Origin: an uncultured virus (IMG/VR IMGVR_UViG_3300035670_000158)
Lineage: Duplodnaviria; Heunggongvirae; Uroviricota; Caudoviricetes
DNA: 64,000 nucleotides
Direction: 5' to 3' (one strand)
Virus record (IMG/VR): IMGVR_UViG_3300035670_000158
Coordinates: 1 to 64,000 of that record
Each line of letters opens with the position of its first letter. Position 1 is the stretch's first letter. The notes under the pieces were generated by a model. That model ran no database searches. It saw nothing but the letters and a program-made list of their open reading frames with translations, and had not been told where the DNA came from. This document shows, one piece after another, positions 55,578 through 62,762 of the stretch. The position numbers and the translations under genes are program-made.

Positions 55578-56756
55578 GTGCAGTTTAAACTAAACACAAA
55601 AGGAGAATCCAAAATGGTTGATGGTATTACCGTTTTCAACCAAAAACAAGTAAATACTAAAAAACAACCAATGTTTTTTGGACAACCACTAGGAATACAA
55701 CGATACGATTCTTACAAATACCCAATCTTCGATAAACTTACAACTCAACAACTTGGATATTTTTGGAGACCTGAAGAGGTTTCTCTTCAAAAAGATCGTG
55801 CCGATTATCAAACTCTTAGATCAGAACAAAAACATATCTTTACATCAAACCTGAAATATCAAGTTATGCTTGATAGCGTTCAGGGTAGAGGTCCTGGTAT
55901 GGCGTTTATTCCATATTGTTCATTGCCCGAATTAGAGGCAGCAATGACGGTATGGGAGTTTATGGAAATGATTCATTCTCGTTCATATACTTACATCATC
56001 AAGAATGTTTATGCAAATCCCAGTGAGGTTTTTGATAAAATTTTGACTGATGATCGCATTTTAGAACGTGCGGAAAGTGTGACGGAATCCTATAATGACT
56101 TCATCAATGAGGCACATCTTTATGACTCTTCAAATGCTTGGATTCATGCAAATGAGGGTGTCGATTCCGCACGATTCACTAAGTTTGAACTCAAACGCAA
56201 ACTATTCAGGGCAATTGCCAATGTGAATGTATTAGAAGGTATAAGATTTTATGTGTCATTTGCATGTTCTTTTGCCTTTGGTGAACTCAAACTCATGGAA
56301 GGATCTGCTAAAATTATATCCCTTATCGCCAGGGATGAAAACCAACATCTAGTTCTCACTCAAAATATTATTAATAAGTGGGCAGAGGGTGATGACCCTG
56401 AAATGAAGCAGATCTTTGAAGAAGAACAAGAGTGGTTGTATGCTCTATTTGATCGTGCCGTAAACGAAGAAAAACGTTGGGCACAATACTTGTTCAAAGA
56501 TGGTAGTATGATTGGGTTGAACGACAAACTTCTACATCAATACGTTGAATGGATTGCAAACCGCCGCCTCAAGGCAATTGGTCTAAAACCAAAGTATGAT
56601 ATTGCTGCAAAGAATAATCCACTTCCTTGGACACAGCATTGGATTTCTTCAAAAGGACTCCAAGTTGCCCCTCAAGAAACAGAAGTGGAATCATATATTG
56701 TAGGTGGTATCAAACAAGATGTTACAAAAAACACCTTTACAGGATTTCAACTATAG
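55578..56756 (+). CDS. nrdB: Class I ribonucleotide reductase beta subunit
   Basis: FWRPEEV, EMIHSRSY, EGIRFY, RDENQH, VAPQETE motifs. Confidence 0.97.
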   Translation: MQFKLNTKGESKMVDGITVFNQKQVNTKKQPMFFGQPLGIQRYDSYKYPIFDKLTTQQLGYFWRPEEVSLQKDRADYQTLRSEQKHIFTSNLKYQVMLDSVQGRGPGMAFIPYCSLPELEAAMTVWEFMEMIHSRSYTYIIKNVYANPSEVFDKILTDDRILERAESVTESYNDFINEAHLYDSSNAWIHANEGVDSARFTKFELKRKLFRAIANVNVLEGIRFYVSFACSFAFGELKLMEGSAKIISLIARDENQHLVLTQNIINKWAEGDDPEMKQIFEEEQEWLYALFDRAVNEEKRWAQYLFKDGSMIGLNDKLLHQYVEWIANRRLKAIGLKPKYDIAAKNNPLPWTQHWISSKGLQVAPQETEVESYIVGGIKQDVTKNTFTGFQL

Positions 56757-56763
56757 GAGAATC

Positions 56764-56940
56764 ATGTTAATCGAAAATGCATCAAAAGACATCTGGACTG
56801 AAGTGTACCTTTCATGGAAAGGTGCTACTTTATCTGAAAAACAAATTCAACTTCTAACAGAAGGACCTAAGTCTCTAACAGATGCTTGGGCTCTTGGTGC
56901 AATGCACAACGAATACAAGAAACATTTTGTTCGAGAGTGA
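56764..56940 (+). CDS. Hypothetical protein
   Basis: AGGAG SD; LLTEGPKSLTDAW. Confidence 0.55.
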   Translation: MLIENASKDIWTEVYLSWKGATLSEKQIQLLTEGPKSLTDAWALGAMHNEYKKHFVRE

Positions 56941-56943
56941 TCA

Positions 56944-57099
56944 ATGCCTAGAAATTTTCTTTCAAAACAGGAGATGAAAATTAGGGTTCTAAAATTAAAA
57001 AATAGTTTATACGAAGAACACAGATCTGAGCATGATAAAGAACTTGCCCACAAGTACTTGAATCAGGTTCTTGACATTCTTGAAGAATATAGAGAGTAA
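56944..57099 (+). CDS. 51-aa hypothetical protein (not in ORF track)
   Basis: MPRNFLSKQEMKIRVLKLKNSL...AHKYLNQVLDILEEYRE. Confidence 0.55.
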   Translation: MPRNFLSKQEMKIRVLKLKNSLYEEHRSEHDKELAHKYLNQVLDILEEYRE

Positions 57100-57130
57100 A
57101 TAAATACCTCCATCTTGGAGGTATTTTATT

Positions 57131-57478
57131 ATGCGCCCACAATCAGCAAAAGCAAAAGGTCGCCGCCTTCAGCAGTGGGTAAGAGATAAACTGGTAGAGT
57201 GTCTTCATATTCATCCAGAAGACATTGAGTCTCGTAGCATGGGAGCAGGCGGTGAAGACCTTATTATGGCTAGAGCAGCCAGGTCAAAGTTTCCCCATAG
57301 TATTGAATGTAAGAATGTTGAAAAACTAAATATCTGGGATGCCTATGAGCAAGCATCTGCCAACTGTGGTGATTACGAACCTATCGTTGTGATGAAAAAG
57401 AACGGAAAGAAACCATTGGTTGTAGTGGACGCAGAGTATTACATTCAACTATTCGGAGACAAAGATGGCACGAATTGA
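57131..57478 (+). CDS. PD-(D/E)xK nuclease, putative Holliday junction resolvase
   Basis: KAKGRRLQ, GEDL, SIECKN motifs. Confidence 0.7.
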   Translation: MRPQSAKAKGRRLQQWVRDKLVECLHIHPEDIESRSMGAGGEDLIMARAARSKFPHSIECKNVEKLNIWDAYEQASANCGDYEPIVVMKKNGKKPLVVVDAEYYIQLFGDKDGTN

Positions 57479-58169
57479 TCTTCATAACTTTTTTAAACAT
57501 TACGACGAAAACAATCCAAAGCATGTAGAAGCTGTTAGATATTTTGAGGATGCTCTTAATAAAAAAGCACCAGAAGAAATGGAAGATTCTTCTGGGTGGG
57601 TTGTGACATATAGAAGTCAACCAAACAAACCAAAATCAAATATTCTTGATGTGCCTTTCTTTCCACAGACAGACAATTATAGAGATGCTAATCGCACCTG
57701 TAATTCATCTGCCTGTGCCATGGTGTTAGAATACTTCAAACCAGGCACACTCAAAGGAGCAAAAGGCGACGACGCTTATGTTCAAAAAGTCTTTTCAATC
57801 GGGGATACCACAGATCACTTGGTTCAAACTCGTGCTCTTGCGTCTTATGGAATTAAGTCAAGTTTCAGTTATTCCCTTACTTTTGCTGATCTTGATAGAG
57901 AGCTTGCCGCTGGCAGACCTGTTGTTATTGGCATTCTTCATAGGGGCACTCTATCTAATCCGACAGGAGGACATATGTTAGTTGTCATTGGCAAAACGCC
58001 ATCAGGTGATTACATTGTTAACGACCCCTATGGTAGTCTCAATGACGGTTACACCAGTGCCGTAAGCAACGGTAAGGGTGCAGTGTATAAGCGTAGTGTG
58101 TTGGCACGTAGATGGTGCCCAGCTGGCAATGATGGATGGGGTAGAATCTTTGATGCAAAAAAGGCGTAA
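57465..58169 (+). CDS. C39-like peptidase (putative cell-wall hydrolase)
   Basis: VPFFPQTDN, RTCNSSACAM (Cys), GGHMLVV (His), VNDPYG (Asp). Confidence 0.8.
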   Translation: MARIDLHNFFKHYDENNPKHVEAVRYFEDALNKKAPEEMEDSSGWVVTYRSQPNKPKSNILDVPFFPQTDNYRDANRTCNSSACAMVLEYFKPGTLKGAKGDDAYVQKVFSIGDTTDHLVQTRALASYGIKSSFSYSLTFADLDRELAAGRPVVIGILHRGTLSNPTGGHMLVVIGKTPSGDYIVNDPYGSLNDGYTSAVSNGKGAVYKRSVLARRWCPAGNDGWGRIFDAKKA

Positions 58170-58645
58170 GCTCCACTCTTGACGGTATTCCCGTAAAGGG
58201 ACTGGAGCTGATCAAAGAGTTTGAAGGATGCCATCTTTCAGCATACCCAGACCCATTTACAGGAAATCTTCCCATCACCATAGGTTGGGGAAGCACCAGA
58301 GACTTCAACGGCAAACCATTCAAACTTGGTGATAAGATTTCACAAAAGGTTGCTGATGATTTGCTCATCAGTCAAATCAAGCGGGAGTTTATTCCTGCCC
58401 TGTCTAAGATACCTTACTGGAGTGAAATGAATGACAATCAACGAGGAGCACTTTTATCATTTGCTTACAATCTCGGTGCTCGCTTTTACAATTCAAGCAA
58501 TTTCAATACTATTTCTCGCAATTTGCGTGAGAAAAATTGGGCAGCAATCCCAAAAACATTAGAGATGTATCGCAATCCTGGTAGCAGTGTAGAGGCAGGA
58601 TTGCTCAGAAGAAGAAAGGCAGAGGGTAAACTTTGGATAAGTTAA
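58154..58645 (+). CDS. GH24 phage lysozyme domain in the -1 frame, with no ATG before its catalytic motif; probably expressed by frameshift
   Basis: Frame opens after TGA at 58151: ...GLELIKEFEGCHLSAYPDP...ITIGWGST...ALLSFAYNLG...GLLRRRKAE. Confidence 0.85.
   Translation, partial: CKKGVSSTLDGIPVKGLELIKEFEGCHLSAYPDPFTGNLPITIGWGSTRDFNGKPFKLGDKISQKVADDLLISQIKREFIPALSKIPYWSEMNDNQRGALLSFAYNLGARFYNSSNFNTISRNLREKNWAAIPKTLEMYRNPGSSVEAGLLRRRKAEGKLWIS
58157..58209 (+). other. Programmed -1 ribosomal frameshift signal
   Basis: A-AAA-AAG heptamer, 5-nt spacer, 16-bp hairpin at 58169-58209. Confidence 0.8.
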
Positions 58646-58887
58646 TCATCCATCTTTGCTTTTAGTCCAAGTAGAGCAGTAAACAAAGTAAATAACGCAT
58701 TATATCCTCTACTCTCAGACTCTTTGCAGTCTAAGGGTGGAGGATTTACTAATCCACCTAAAGCATCTGCTCTTTCCATGGAACCTGGAACCATAAAATT
58801 GCAGTTTGCAAAAGTAATACCAACGTATCCTAGTGTTCCTATTACAAGAGTGACAATGAGTTTATCAAGTAGCTTTAGATTTTTCAT
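58642..58887 (-). CDS. Small protein with two hydrophobic segments, on the minus strand
   Basis: 81 aa; minus-strand ATAAATA at 58909-58915; stop overlaps the lysozyme stop. Confidence 0.6.
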   Translation of the reverse strand: MKNLKLLDKLIVTLVIGTLGYVGITFANCNFMVPGSMERADALGGLVNPPPLDCKESESRGYNALFTLFTALLGLKAKMDD

Positions 58888-58927
58888 CTTGCTTCTTGCT
58901 GACAGGTCTATTTATTTGGAGGGGGTC

Positions 58928-58957
58928 TTGACAAACCCCTAAATACTCACTTATAAT
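58928..58957 (+). promoter_or_regulatory. Sigma70 promoter with an embedded late-promoter-like CTAAATA
   Basis: TTGACA-18 nt-TATAAT. Confidence 0.7.
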
Positions 58958-58989
58958 GAATTTTCGTCATTAGTCCTTGACGTGTCTTA

Positions 58990-59052
58990 GAGCCGTGGGA
59001 TCTGCCCTCTGAGAAGAGGGAAGTGCGCTTTTCCTATACGGATGTAGAGTTC
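58990..59052 (+). ncRNA. Candidate structured 5' leader of the rlpA-like gene
   Basis: CCGTGGGA/TCCTATACGG stem enclosing a CCCTCT-GAGA-AGAGGG GNRA hairpin. Confidence 0.45.
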
Positions 59053-59063
59053 AATCGAATTTA

Positions 59064-59426
59064 ATGCTTTTCAAATCACTTTCAATTCTCGCCATTGCCG
59101 CTGCAGGACTAGCACCCCTTCAGGCAAAGGCAGCGAGCGGATGTTCCCTCGCATCACATTATGGAGTCGGTGATGGATATCATGGGCAGACAACTGCAAA
59201 TGGTGAAAGATATAACGCTTATGGAAAATCAGTAGCACATAAATGGCTTCCTTTTGGAACCAGATTGAGAGTTACAAATCAACGAAATGGTAAGTCAGTA
59301 ATTGTGCGTGTAAATGATCGCGGTCCCTACGTTGGTGGGAGAGACCTTGACTTGTCTTATGGTGCGTTCTCTTCTATTGCTCACCCAGGTCAAGGCGTTA
59401 CTAGCGTCTGTTATTCAAGGGTCTAA
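59064..59426 (+). CDS. rlpA: RlpA-like (DPBB) lytic transglycosylase with signal peptide
   Basis: ASHYG, TANGE, AHKWLPFGT, VRVNDRGPY, LDLS motifs. Confidence 0.9.
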   Translation: MLFKSLSILAIAAAGLAPLQAKAASGCSLASHYGVGDGYHGQTTANGERYNAYGKSVAHKWLPFGTRLRVTNQRNGKSVIVRVNDRGPYVGGRDLDLSYGAFSSIAHPGQGVTSVCYSRV

Positions 59427-59442
59427 TTGAATACTAAATATT

Positions 59443-59470
59443 GGGGAGTGCTGCAGACCTCCCCTTTTTT
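59443..59470 (+). terminator. Intrinsic terminator
   Basis: GGGGAG...CTCCCC followed by T6. Confidence 0.65.
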
Positions 59471-59881
59471 ATGTTTAATTTCGGAAAGAAAAAACCCGAT
59501 ATAAAACAATACGCAATTGTAGGAGTCGTATTATCTTCTATTATTGCAGTTCTTTCGCAGTGTACCGGAATTCATGAGAACAATCTTTGGGATTTGTTTG
59601 ATGAGATTCAAAGAAAGTATTTTCCACAAACTATGTTGAATGAGTTTATACTTAAAGATCCTGATAAACTGAATCGTAGAATTCAAAGAGATGTTGATAA
59701 AGCAATCAATAATGTAACACCAGAGTATGATCGGATTATTTCCGATTATACCCGAAAATATCAACCAAAATATGTGGAAGAACAAAATGACGAGACTGTG
59801 TGCTATACTAATGAATGTAAATCGTTAGCACCTCCCATGAGAATCTGTGCTCCTTGGGTTGACACCTGCCCTAAGGACTGA
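59471..59881 (+). CDS. Membrane-anchored hypothetical protein
   Basis: N-terminal hydrophobic helix ending LSQC; Cys-rich C-terminus. Confidence 0.6.
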   Translation: MFNFGKKKPDIKQYAIVGVVLSSIIAVLSQCTGIHENNLWDLFDEIQRKYFPQTMLNEFILKDPDKLNRRIQRDVDKAINNVTPEYDRIISDYTRKYQPKYVEEQNDETVCYTNECKSLAPPMRICAPWVDTCPKD

Positions 59882-59898
59882 TATAATAGGTGAGTTGA

Positions 59899-59970
59899 GG
59901 GCTCATAGTTAAATGGATATAACCCGATCCTTCTAAGATTGTGTTCTTGGTTCGATTCCAAGTGAGCCTG
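59899..59970 (+). tRNA. tRNA-Arg(TCT)
   Basis: GGGCTCA/TGAGCCT acceptor, anticodon loop CTTCTAA, TTCGATT T-loop; CCA not encoded. Confidence 0.88.
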
Positions 59971-59972
59971 TT

Positions 59973-60055
59973 GCTTCAGTGGTGGAACGGTAGACACAGC
60001 GGACTTAGAATCCGCCGCCCTAAAAAGCGTGGAAGTTCAAATCTTCTCTGGAGCA
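59973..60055 (+). tRNA. tRNA-Leu(TAG)
   Basis: GCTTCAG/CTGGAGC acceptor, GCGGA-CTTAGAA-TCCGC, long variable arm. Confidence 0.92.
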
Positions 60056-60056
60056 C

Positions 60057-60085
60057 TTGACAATCAAACCTAAATGGTTTATGAT
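60057..60085 (+). promoter_or_regulatory. Sigma70 promoter within an inverted repeat
   Basis: TTGACA-17 nt-TATGAT. Confidence 0.7.
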
Positions 60086-60139
60086 TGTCTTATATCAAAA
60101 GGTATGATATAATAAATAAATATATTATACCTTAAGATT

Positions 60140-60493
60140 ATGCCATATAAAAACAAAGAGGACTATAAAAACTGGGAAAAGAGATATCGTAACGAATATT
60201 ATCAAAGACCAGAAACAAAACAAAGATTGTCAGAGCAATCTAAGTTGCGTAGAGAACGAAATAAAAGTTTTGTTCTAGATAAAATGATTCCTTGTATTGT
60301 ATGTGGTGAGAGTGACCCTATTGTTATTGATTTTCACCATTTAGATGAATCTCAAAAAGATAAAGGAATTTCTCAAATGATGCAAAGTAATTATTCTTTG
60401 CAAAAAATACAAGAAGAACTTGACAAATGTGTTTGTTTATGTTCTAATTGTCATAGGAGAGTTCACGCAGGAACTCTTACTTTGCGGGTATAG
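60140..60493 (+). CDS. HNH endonuclease (putative homing endonuclease)
   Basis: CIVCG, DFHHLD, LCSNCHRRVH motifs. Confidence 0.85.
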   Translation: MPYKNKEDYKNWEKRYRNEYYQRPETKQRLSEQSKLRRERNKSFVLDKMIPCIVCGESDPIVIDFHHLDESQKDKGISQMMQSNYSLQKIQEELDKCVCLCSNCHRRVHAGTLTLRV

Positions 60494-60554
60494 TTTAGGG
60501 GTAAAATGCCATCCTTCCAAGTTGGAGTCACCGGTTCGATTCCGGTTACCCGCT
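60484..60554 (+). tRNA. tRNA-Gly(TCC)
   Basis: GCGGGTA/TACCCGC acceptor, anticodon loop CTTCCAA, T discriminator. Confidence 0.9.
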
Positions 60555-60576
60555 CTGAACCTTTGGGTTCTTAAAA

Positions 60577-60683
60577 TGTGGTTCTGGGTGGAATTCCCAG
60601 CGGTTCCGTTAGGGACTGTCCTTTGTAGGTTCGATACCTACATCTTCCTTATGGGAGATAAGAACGGCTATTGGAAACCACAA
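60577..60683 (+). ncRNA. Multibranch structured RNA with a T-loop
   Basis: TGTGGTT/AACCACA closing stem plus five internal stems, including TGTAGG-TTCGATA-CCTACA. Confidence 0.65.
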
Positions 60684-60755
60684 CCTCTGGTAGTCTATTG
60701 GTAAGGACAGGCAGACAATGCACTTGGATACTAGGTTCGATTCCTAGACAGAGGA
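60684..60755 (+). ncRNA. tRNA-like element with a non-canonical anticodon arm
   Basis: CCTCTG/CAGAGG acceptor, D-arm GTCT/GGAC, CTAGG-TTCGATT-CCTAG T-arm; no 5-bp/7-nt anticodon hairpin. Confidence 0.65.
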
Positions 60756-60759
60756 CAAC

Positions 60760-60832
<73 letters not shown>

Positions 60833-60851
60833 AAATAAATCAAAAACTATA

Positions 60852-61289
60852 ATGGAAACTTTATATGAAGTGCTTCATAAAGCACAGACAACATTATTTT
60901 GCTTGATGCAAAAGACTTGGGTATATCACTGGAATGTTGTGGGTAGTGAGTTCTTTCAATTGCATGAAGCATTTGGAAATCAATATGAGACTATGATTGA
61001 AGAAATTGATAGACTCACTGAACATATGAGGTACTTGAGAATGAAAGCAGTCGCACCAATTTCCATGGTTGCTGATACATCAGAAATTCCTGAAGCTACT
61101 TCTGGAGCGTCTGATAGAACCATGGTTGCTCAACTGTATAAAGACAACCAAAAACTGATTGAGGTCTTTACAGAAGCAATTGAAGCAGCAGAAAATAATA
61201 AGCAACGCTCTACTTCCAATTTACTTCAAGATCTGGTAGAATCTCATGGTAAAAATGTTTGGATGCTCAGATCATTTTTGAAAGAATGA
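60852..61289 (+). CDS. dps: Dps / ferritin-like DNA protection protein
   Basis: HWNVVGSEFFQLHEAF, IDRLTEH, HGKNVWML motifs. Confidence 0.9.
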   Translation: METLYEVLHKAQTTLFCLMQKTWVYHWNVVGSEFFQLHEAFGNQYETMIEEIDRLTEHMRYLRMKAVAPISMVADTSEIPEATSGASDRTMVAQLYKDNQKLIEVFTEAIEAAENNKQRSTSNLLQDLVESHGKNVWMLRSFLKE

Positions 61290-61486
61290 AAGACAAAAAA
61301 TTTAAAAAACTTATACAGAAACCATTGAGGTTTCATCACCAAGATATACATGAAGAACTTGATGAAATTAAAGGGATGCTAAAAAATGTTATCAGTCAGA
61401 TGCAAAGTTTGCAACAAAGAGTTGTCGAGCACGAACAAAACACAGTGCTGCGGATGCCCGAACATGACAACCGTGAGGGAGGATAA
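61286..61486 (+). CDS. Hypothetical protein
   Basis: ATGA overlap with the dps stop. Confidence 0.45.
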   Translation: MKDKKFKKLIQKPLRFHHQDIHEELDEIKGMLKNVISQMQSLQQRVVEHEQNTVLRMPEHDNREGG

Positions 61487-61634
61487 AATCTCTGCGGTTG
61501 ACTTAAGTAAAGTTCTATTGCTAAATTCCGAAAAGAAGGTAAATAATCATGGAATCCTGACAAATAAGGATTTAGAATTTCAAGAGAACAGACGGAAACG
61601 CAAAGTTCGTAAACTTTACTTTGAAGAAAGATGA
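61386..61634 (+). CDS. Zn-ribbon-like hypothetical protein
   Basis: CKVC...CCGCPN. Confidence 0.6.
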   Translation: MLSVRCKVCNKELSSTNKTQCCGCPNMTTVREDKISAVDLSKVLLLNSEKKVNNHGILTNKDLEFQENRRKRKVRKLYFEER

Positions 61635-61858
61635 TTAACCTTCACCAACGATTCAATCATTATCTCAATACAGATAAAACAATCAATGAACAAGACGTGA
61701 ATGAGAAATTGATTAGTTATGGTTGGTTAGATAATGGTGTAGACATCACGGGATACTATCTCTTGACAGAGAACTTTGAATTGGTGTATGATATGCAAGA
61801 GAACTTCAAGCATAAGGTCCCACGGAGATCCTATGCTTGCCTCAAAACAAAAGGATAA
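61631..61858 (+). CDS. Hypothetical protein
   Basis: 75-aa ORF translationally coupled to the previous gene. Confidence 0.55.
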   Translation: MINLHQRFNHYLNTDKTINEQDVNEKLISYGWLDNGVDITGYYLLTENFELVYDMQENFKHKVPRRSYACLKTKG

Positions 61859-61859
61859 T

Positions 61860-61883
61860 GGAAAGGTGGTCGAGTGGTTGAAG
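61860..61883 (+). pseudogene. Orphan 5' fragment of a tRNA-Ser-like gene
   Basis: GGAAAGG-TGGTCGAGTGGTTGAAG (acceptor 5' strand and D-loop), truncated by an AT-rich hairpin. Confidence 0.65.
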
Positions 61884-61921
61884 TTCTAATTTTTCTAAAT
61901 AAATTAGAACCATAAATAATT

Positions 61922-62311
61922 ATGCCATACAAGGATATAAAAAAGCAAAGAGAAGCGCAGCGACTCTGGGCTGAAAAACAATCTAGTGAGTTTAAAAAGG
62001 TAAAATACCAACGAGAACAAAACCACAAAAAGTTGATGGTTGAAAAACTAAATCAACTAAAATTAGAAAAAGGTTGTTGCGAATTGTGTGGTGAGTATCA
62101 TCCACCATGTTGTTTTGATTTTCATCATTTGGACAAAACAACTAAATCAAAAGAAGTATCTCAGTTAGCTGCAAAAGGATACAAATGGGACACAATCTTG
62201 ACTGAAGTTGAGAAGTGTGTTATGCTATGTGCTCCATGTCATCGTAAGATACATGCGGGACTGCTAACAATCTTGGAGAGTCAATCCGATTGGCGACGGA
62301 ACCTGTCTTGA
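61922..62311 (+). CDS. HNH endonuclease (putative homing endonuclease)
   Basis: CELCG, FDFHHLD, LCAPCHRKIH motifs; paralogous to 60140-60493. Confidence 0.85.
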   Translation: MPYKDIKKQREAQRLWAEKQSSEFKKVKYQREQNHKKLMVEKLNQLKLEKGCCELCGEYHPPCCFDFHHLDKTTKSKEVSQLAAKGYKWDTILTEVEKCVMLCAPCHRKIHAGLLTILESQSDWRRNLS

Positions 62312-62361
62312 AAACAGTTGAGGTGTTAAAGCCCTTGGGCGTTCGACTCGCCCACTCTCCG
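62275..62361 (+). tRNA. tRNA-Ser(TGA) with an atypical D-arm
   Basis: GGAGAGT/ACTCTCC acceptor, G discriminator, loop CTTGAAA, long variable arm, GGGCG-TTCGACT-CGCCC. Confidence 0.85.
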
Positions 62362-62389
62362 TTGCTTTTTTATAAAAAGCATATTTCTT

Positions 62390-62463
62390 CGGGCATTAGC
62401 GCAGTTTGGTAGCGCGTTCCGTTTGGGGCGGAAAGGTCATAGGTTCAAATCCTATATGCCCGA
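62390..62463 (+). tRNA. tRNA-Pro(TGG)
   Basis: CGGGCAT/ATGCCCG acceptor, TTCCG-TTTGGGG-CGGAA. Confidence 0.92.
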
Positions 62464-62490
62464 TATATAAAACAAGTAACTAAAACTCAA

Positions 62491-62673
62491 ATGTCGTTAC
62501 CAAAAAATCAAATCACAATTGATGAATTCAGATCTAATCATGAACATTACCTAGAAAGAATGCAAGCTGGAGAAACGTTTTCTTTCACAGATTTTGACCA
62601 AAATAAACATAACTTACATGAACCAGTAAACAATAAAGGAATACCGATCGATATTGAAGAGATCAAATTCTAG
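62491..62673 (+). CDS. Small protein with a Phd/YefM-like N-terminus
   Basis: ITIDEFRSNHEHYLERMQAGETFSFT pattern. Confidence 0.45.
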   Translation: MSLPKNQITIDEFRSNHEHYLERMQAGETFSFTDFDQNKHNLHEPVNNKGIPIDIEEIKF

Positions 62674-62683
62674 TCTAGTGTTT

Positions 62684-62756
62684 GCTGGTTTAGCTATCTG
62701 GTGAAAGCGCCCGACTCATAATCGGATACAGGTGAGTTCGATCCTCACAACCAGCA
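62684..62756 (+). tRNA. tRNA with CAT anticodon (elongator Met or Ile2)
   Basis: GCTGGTT/AACCAGC acceptor, loop CTCATAA; paired 1:72 argues against an initiator. Confidence 0.85.
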
Positions 62757-62762
62757 TTGGAG

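Follow-up and report, generated by a model that had tools for sequence, protein, structure and literature searches.

A Candidate Programmed −1 Frameshift Between a C39-like Peptidase and a Lysozyme in T4-like Cyanophages

Introduction

In the genome of a T4-like cyanophage, a complete lysozyme domain lies in a reading frame that offers it no ordinary start codon, just behind a peptidase gene that ends on a run of adenines. How such an enzyme could be made, and in what company, is the question raised by this locus. The window, the whole stretch of DNA analysed here (64,000 nucleotides), makes up most of a 71,250-base viral contig, and a cyanobacterial host of the Synechococcus type is suggested by isolates that infect Synechococcus. 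At the locus, nrdA and nrdB are followed by a 115-aa ORF, the lysin gene, an RlpA-like gene and tRNA genes. The order is identical in phage S-PM2, whose p156 protein is 79% identical to the 234-aa ORF of the window. An earlier note on this DNA had proposed that a programmed −1 frameshift makes two lysins from one gene. Comparison with relatives supports this proposal. The reading favored here, with a probability of about 0.92, is that ribosomes undergo a programmed −1 shift of the kind known from dnaX, IS3 and lambda G. The junction comprises the following features:

57465..58169 (+): 0-frame ORF of 234 aa, in which the N-terminal module is followed by a C39-like peptidase of papain fold
57465..57620 (+): helical module at the N-terminus (residues 1-52), predicted to form a homodimer and common to many wall hydrolases of cyanophages
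58157..58163 (+): slippery heptamer A AAA AAG in X XXY YYZ phase
58167..58169 (+): 0-frame stop TAA, one codon past the heptamer
58169..58209 (+): putative stimulatory stem-loop, 16 bp, 5-nt spacer, 3′ arm within the first lysozyme codons
58163..58645 (+): 160 aa of −1 frame, a linker followed by the GH24 lysozyme, lacking a canonical start ahead of the catalytic residues

A Lysozyme Without a Start Codon

The 234-aa ORF ends in GAT GCA AAA AAG GCG TAA. The run that the earlier note called A7 is in fact six A plus G; the in-phase A AAA AAG near the end of the peptidase ORF and the 16-bp hairpin five nucleotides later are as it described them. Following TGA 58151-58153, the −1 frame is open from 58154 to 58645 and encodes, as had been claimed, a GH24 phage lysozyme, matching PF00959 Phage_lysozyme with 82.3 bits (cut-off 22.3) and PDB lysozymes with an E-value of 1.7e-13. 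The Glu-Asp-Thr set expected of such an enzyme is present, presumably as E 58223, D 58250 and T 58277, a placement that follows the usual motif spacing and has a 3-residue insert before T. The earliest ATG, GTG or TTG in this frame is TTG 58361, 3′ of all three putative catalytic residues, so that the ORF-track start at 58361 removes the active site, just as the note had warned. Its predicted products also agree with computation: a short form of 234 aa (25.9 kDa) and a fusion of 393 aa, about 43.7 kDa against the ~43 kDa first given.

Both the window and its relatives carry an overlapping −1 ORF that is under coding selection and lacks its own start. Over the lysozyme start omitted by annotators, differences from S-PM2 number 13/5/36 at first, second and third codon positions, which points to purifying selection on this part of the −1 frame. 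Within this genome, the shift would evidently be the only route to an intact lysozyme. Among its 70 plus-strand ORFs of at least 100 aa, only the lysin ORF ends in such a heptamer, and A AAA AAG encodes 9 of the 152 Lys-Lys pairs in the long ORFs. Two other A AAA AAG sites with long −1 frames were rejected as shift candidates for want of a stable stem. An Rfam scan of 56500-60500 returned two tRNAs and one sub-threshold leader hit, with no match at the junction.

The 0-frame product carries PF13529 Peptidase_C39_2 on residues 61-189 (49.8 bits, cut-off 24). Its fold is papain-like (Foldseek matches 3erv and 2bu3, E 2-4e-4), and Q68, C79, H170 and D187, the Cys-His-Asp set plus Gln of a C39-like peptidase, are invariant in 119 homologues; a search of the PDB by sequence gave no match at E up to 1. 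In other cyanophages, the C39-like peptidase is fused in frame with GH24, GH73 or GH19 domains, and it may act on peptidoglycan. Cellular cyanobacteria (L357:825-3158, L359:596-3004) encode the same C39-like peptidase within a protein of 780-800 aa, whose N-terminal region, judged by eye, is of membrane type and whose C-terminal domain looks chitinase/lysozyme-like.

Junctions in Relatives

At least 356 loci were gathered, some contigs more than once, using DNA search patterns made of flanking protein motifs alone, with the heptamer left out. A peptidase-to-lysozyme junction occurs in at least 278 loci and a peptidase without a nearby lysozyme in at least 53, the remainder showing neither pattern. 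The junction loci reduce to 142 distinct junctions listed, which were classed after viewing by their frame and length: 100 are in −1 and have no coupled start, 17+2 are start-coupled, 12 are two-gene and 11 are in-frame. The conservation foreseen by the earlier note is found in the first class, so that 100 of the 142 keep heptamer, hairpin and −1 phase.

All 100 uncoupled −1 junctions listed have an X XXY YYZ heptamer in phase for re-pairing (93 A AAA AAG, 6 C CCA AAG and 1 T TTT TTT, the last in S-CAM7). From the heptamer onward their −1 frame is open in every case, and a stop immediately 3′ of it is present in 91. The base ahead of AAA AAG is A under seven different amino acids, compared with 37% A at Ala/Val third positions. 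A replicate metagenome scan, in which 45 of 120 loci belonged to the family and gave 44 junctions, again had A AAA AAG in phase in 34 of 34 uncoupled −1 junctions, 27 of them previously unseen. Among the closest 120 proteins, 98 terminate in Lys-Lys or Lys-Lys plus one residue. These junctions are kin, as the 86 peptidases form 16 clusters at 80% identity and 5 at 70%; the 100 junctions therefore do not represent 100 independent events.

RefSeq annotates a truncated lysin at S-PM2 (L161:2184-2684) and S-CAM7 (L164:1480-2001), of 72 and 90 aa, respectively, without the catalytic half. In both phages the full lysozyme lies in the −1 frame, 3′ of a slippery site and hairpin.

The Downstream Hairpin

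With −20.6 kcal/mol and a z of −3.3, the window hairpin was equalled by 3 of 200 shuffles, and a 3′ structure at about 5-9 nt from the heptamer is found in the window and relatives alike. Among the junctions listed, downstream z falls below −2 in 90/100 shift, 5/17 coupled, 6/11 in-frame and 1/12 two-gene forms, while perfect stems of at least 9 bp occur in 85 of the 100 shift junctions listed and in 37 of 395 control windows. Within the window's stem family (33 sequences, S-PM2 included), 96% of cells pair and both sides have changed at 6 of 11 pairs, a conservation to be read with the caveat that protein coding constrains the 3′ arm. No shuffle in 500 matches this covariation, the shuffle ignoring kinship, and slid partners pair in 32-51%. 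Three stem families have different registers and arms that are not cross-compatible, and local GC-rich stems occur in several lineages. Judged from these alignments, the hairpin covaries and was rebuilt in several unrelated sequences.

A G-rich, SD-like tract had also been pointed out upstream of the heptamer. The tract is real, lying 14 nt upstream in 83 of the 100 shift junctions listed, whereas a role as stimulator is unsupported: GGNTGGGGN is forced by Gly-Trp-Gly codons and occurs in all designs, non-shifting ones included, and its wobble bases are not SD-biased.

Other Junction Designs and their Evolution

Since in-frame, coupled and two-gene relatives exist, the frameshift is dispensable; about 30% of the distinct junctions listed (42/142) use these other designs. 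Each gene of the 12 two-gene junctions listed has its own N-terminal module. A second junction type places the peptidase in a separate gene and has a 72-80-aa ORF made of module, linker and CPHC tail. In 24 of 24 family junctions (26 distinct matches), such module-only ORFs end in G GGA AAG followed by a stop and a hairpin, the heptamer again being in phase, and the −1 frame is open into the lysozyme in 23 of the 24. These loci are L364-L401 (e.g., L364, L384 and L399), and their CPHC tail contains one CxxC. Met codons stand just before the lysozyme in 21 of the 23, likewise in their in-frame relatives, and so an internal start may give a third product. The relatives show that it is the lysozyme which is gated, and that its constant partner is not the peptidase but the N-terminal module. 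This amends the earlier picture of two lysins from one gene, in which the peptidase was constant, and leaves its gated lysozyme in place. The three heptamers most efficient in E. coli are given as A AAA AAG, C CCA AAG as well as G GGA AAG in one study (PMC4066793). The family has all three and thus uses E. coli's top motifs, though the ranking may not be that of the host.

Among the 11 in-frame junctions listed, three (ACG-2014f, L015, L024) have retained A AAA AAG and the hairpin together with a −1 stop one codon further on, six have no heptamer and two have A7G. A further scan, with 4 family loci of 24, added three heptamer-keeping in-frame junctions, all ACG-2014f-like. Six distinct in-frame junctions therefore keep heptamer, hairpin and −1 stop (L163, L537, L539, L548, L015, L024). 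By analogy with dnaX, these forms are predicted to make the fusion by default, and a shift would truncate it. The A7G variants (L247, L291, L322, L280, L458), which encode a constitutive fusion and retain the hairpin, may be errors or recent mutants. In loci of the S-CREM1 type (L165, L126, L129, L027), the order is reversed to lysozyme-module-peptidase, fused in frame, with a Met at the module start that could yield a second product via internal initiation.

Unrooted trees (FastTree and small IQ-TREE trees) do not unite the shift forms as monophyletic for either domain (AU p 2e-10 and 4e-4; 30 chosen rows). In the lysozyme tree, coupled forms are nested among shift forms and S-CAM7 groups with in-frame forms. 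Because the trees have no root, gains, losses and recombination are indistinguishable.

Alternative Explanations

A sequencing or assembly error, or the decay of an in-frame fusion into a pseudogene, would also leave a broken frame, and in-frame fusions do exist, both as the 11 of 142 distinct junctions listed and as the 405-aa fusion modeled by PHROG 3617. The same phase, however, recurs in at least 208 loci and in the records of isolate S-PM2 and of S-CAM7, and the codon-position differences from S-PM2 reflect purifying selection. The indel that the earlier note had allowed for in the A run does not appear either: four runs belonging to three studies gave contigs that span the site ungapped. 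Those from X1 and X2 (either of which may be the source sample) are identical across it, and those from X5 and X8, which belong to two other studies, are more distant and likewise have no gap. This explanation is regarded as refuted by conservation, and the chance left to it is negligible. Transcriptional slippage, in which an extra A inserted by RNA polymerase within the run would leave a lengthened mRNA with a single reading frame, would be in keeping with the A7G in-frame relatives L247, L280 and L458 and is plausible for S-CAM7, given the length of its T8 run. For the locus in question we consider it highly improbable.

The lysozyme might instead be a separate protein. Its translation would begin at ATT 58187 or at CTG 58202, or ribosomes would terminate and reinitiate at the peptidase stop, and the hairpin would do no more than dampen initiation. 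The 19 distinct start-coupled relatives listed, in which ATG, GTG or TTG overlaps the peptidase stop, speak for such a route, as do the Met codons of the G GGA AAG group and the unpaired loop that holds the window's ATT 58187. A 1994 report by Shearman is said to describe an Ile start for the phiVML3 lysin, which counts on the same side, and at least one ATG/GTG/TTG/CTG/ATH lies between heptamer and lysozyme core in 85 of the 100 shift junctions listed. Yet the other 15 have none in this interval, and ATG occurs in 4 of the 100. No start codon is conserved in the −1 frame of relatives, the codon at the ATT position being freely Ile, Val or Leu and often non-initiating, and the bases 5-15 nt 5′ of ATT 58187 are paired (0.15 unpaired) without an SD. 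Independent initiation also leaves unexplained why three heptamer kinds are in phase and why the −1 frame is open in 100 of 100 junctions, and we rate it as very unlikely. Counting against the frameshift reading, A AAA AAG is retained in 14 of the 17 start-coupled forms listed, despite their weak hairpins.

The N-terminal Module

The module shared by both predicted isoforms is helical over residues 1-52 (predicted, pLDDT 90). It has no Pfam or PDB match: Pfam on 66 copies gave scattered weak hits only, a module profile against PDB sequences found nothing significant, and the ESM Atlas yielded no usable match to residues 1-56. Structure searching reached a best Z of 3.3, with none at 5 or above, and a BFVD search returned cyanophage lysins only, none at E 0.001. 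The absence of matches in these searches does not establish a new fold. Of 52 longer module proteins, drawn from the best 150 profile matches, 29 contain a known peptidoglycan hydrolase domain, 7 a C39-like peptidase only, 14 have no match and 2 have TPR, the last two being probably false matches. Tandem module copies are found in P0200, P0255, P0268, P0122, P0123, P0131 and L349; among these cases, a protein with GH25 and PG_binding_1 has five, and two long lysozyme proteins of secreted appearance have weak ones.

As a homodimer the module scores 0.66 in prediction, against 0.04 for the best control, with runs agreeing in at least 92% of contacts and pLDDT of at least 83. In calibration, 20 of 30 solved homodimers came up to the dimer mark, as did 1 of 23 single chains. 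The model supports the notion that short and long forms could pair via the module; wall-binding may equally be its role, the two standing on the same footing.

Possible Upstream Control and Neighboring Genes

Expression of the lysin gene may be timed from upstream, where the following features lie:

57099..57106 (+): T4-type late-promoter-like site AATAAATA, function inferred
57102..57126 (+): hairpin overlapping the late-promoter-like site and hiding the GGAGG ribosome-binding site of the 57131 ORF
57131..57478 (+): 115-aa ORF, first gene of the presumed late unit, overlapping the lysin start by 14 nt

Of 45 shift-type relatives whose flank is long enough, 33 have an ATAAATA no more than 500 nt 5′ of the peptidase start, compared with 0 of 86 coding controls. 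The overlapping hairpin has a z of −4.5 (−4.0 for its S-PM2 equivalent), and 12 of the 33 relatives carrying the promoter motif have such a hairpin over the ribosome-binding site. The 115-aa ORF had no match in a Pfam scan and is syntenic with S-PM2p155, annotated as a RusA-like resolvase. These signals suggest late timing of lysin expression. In the available part of the S-CREM2 virion table, the C39 and lysozyme genes are absent from the listed lysis proteins (PMC10665884), which speaks weakly for a non-virion role.

An 81-aa ORF on the minus strand (58642-58887) converges on the lysozyme end with a 4-base overlap and has a hydrophobic N-terminal stretch. It has no match in Pfam or PHROG and is possibly a membrane protein; S-SRM01 has an ORF of similar size at the equivalent position. 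Beyond it, a perfect sigma-70 consensus (12/12) at 58928-58957 (+) precedes an RlpA-like DPBB_1 gene (59064-59426, +) with a signal-like N-terminus, a second wall-active candidate under putative early control. Seven tRNA genes follow at 59899-62757 (Arg, Leu, Gly, Val, Ser, Pro and Met), with no tRNA-Lys among them, and two similar HNH-like ORFs, named by eye, lie in their midst (60140-60493 and 61922-62311).

Proposed Mechanism and Known Systems

Late in infection, translation would start at 57465, and most or many ribosomes would terminate at 58167 to release the 234-aa module-peptidase. The hairpin would slow a fraction of ribosomes while two tRNA-Lys occupy A AAA AAG, and slowed ribosomes that slip back one base would go on to make the 393-aa module-peptidase-lysozyme. 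The shift would in this way set the ratio of short to long isoforms, the N-terminal module being common to both. We infer the shift itself, its efficiency, its late timing and a lysis role for both products. It is close to an even bet that the purpose is to fix the proportion of the two isoforms in a lysin whose co-assembly the module may mediate. A fuller reading is more tentative, falling somewhat short of even odds: a heteromeric cyanophage lysin tuned by recoding, in which a dimerizing module of ~50 residues heads both isoforms and a portable heptamer-hairpin cassette sets the muramidase-bearing share. The extension to the cassette's history, held with the same reserve, is that it was gained, lost and inverted several times, across three to four heptamers, no fewer than four unrelated stems, both polarities and two partners upstream.

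The elements of this mechanism are familiar. E. coli dnaX and IS3/IS911, like the lysin gene, combine A AAA AAG with a 3′ stem-loop a few bases on, and in dnaX the shift meets a stop at once, as in the ACG-2014f-type forms. Unlike dnaX and IS3, the lysin gene gives no sign of a selected upstream SD stimulator; unlike dnaX, the window's shift extends the product rather than truncating it, the 0-frame stop adjoins the heptamer and the product is a wall hydrolase. Lambda gpG/gpGT and other phage capsid and tail extensions likewise pair a short default with a rarer, C-terminally extended product at a set ratio, according to two papers (PMC5009743, PMC10885494), and G GGA AAG of gpG/gpGT recurs in one cyanophage lysin subgroup. 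In contrast to lambda, the cyanophage case concerns a lysis gene with a strong hairpin, and polarity and partner differ among lineages.

Two isoforms from one gene with a small common module are also known in Lys170, LysIME-EF1, CD27L, CTP1L and LysP7951, two-polypeptide endolysins that in several cases form hetero-oligomers of fixed stoichiometry (PMC9430671, in the portion available, where the words ‘frameshift’ and ‘cyano’ do not occur). Their common part is C-terminal, arises from an in-frame second start and serves against Gram-positive hosts, whereas that of the cyanophage lysin is N-terminal and its second product needs a frame change. In T4, the late promoter of gene e is contained in a hairpin, which on read-through transcripts made earlier hides the ribosome-binding site, and S-PM2 is listed as having no apparent gene e (both PMC3014915). 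In the cyanophage version of this arrangement, present in 12 relatives, the lysin comes one gene further downstream and the frameshift is added as a second layer.

The MS2 lysis gene and the phiVML3 lysin also achieve low-level lysis function through overlapping frames. The latter reportedly relies on an Ile start plus a nested second gene, not on a shift, and to our knowledge neither has a conserved heptamer-plus-hairpin signal. The frameshift proposed for MS2 in 1982 was later ascribed to termination-reinitiation (reference list of PMC5009743), and PRFect cites the lactococcal phiVML3 lysin as frameshifted (PMC10885494). As far as its text was available, PMC5009743 does not contain the whole words ‘lysin’, ‘lysozyme’, ‘endolysin’ or ‘cyanophage’. 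No description of the −1 shift proposed for the cyanophage lysin was found in the part of the full-text literature that was searched.

Implications

While the mechanism itself is known, its use to produce a phage lysin in two isoforms, throughout a broad family of cyanophages and in either polarity, is apparently new. Frameshifting, known in phages for tail chaperones and capsids, would thereby reach a lysis enzyme too, in T4-like cyanophages, a group whose lysis genes are poorly understood. The annotation of S-PM2 is corrected with respect to p157, a 72-aa ‘putative lysin’ without its catalytic half, and an uncharacterized module common to cyanophage wall hydrolases is brought to attention. 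More than 150 variants of the junction form a natural series that covers the three strongest slippery sites of bacteria, various stems and both polarities; with it, the rules that govern −1 shifting in bacteria, and what isoform ratios are for, become directly testable. If the heteromeric lysin proves true, public annotations miss the true lysozyme throughout, and the isoform ratio would tune the timing or efficiency of lysis in abundant aquatic phages.
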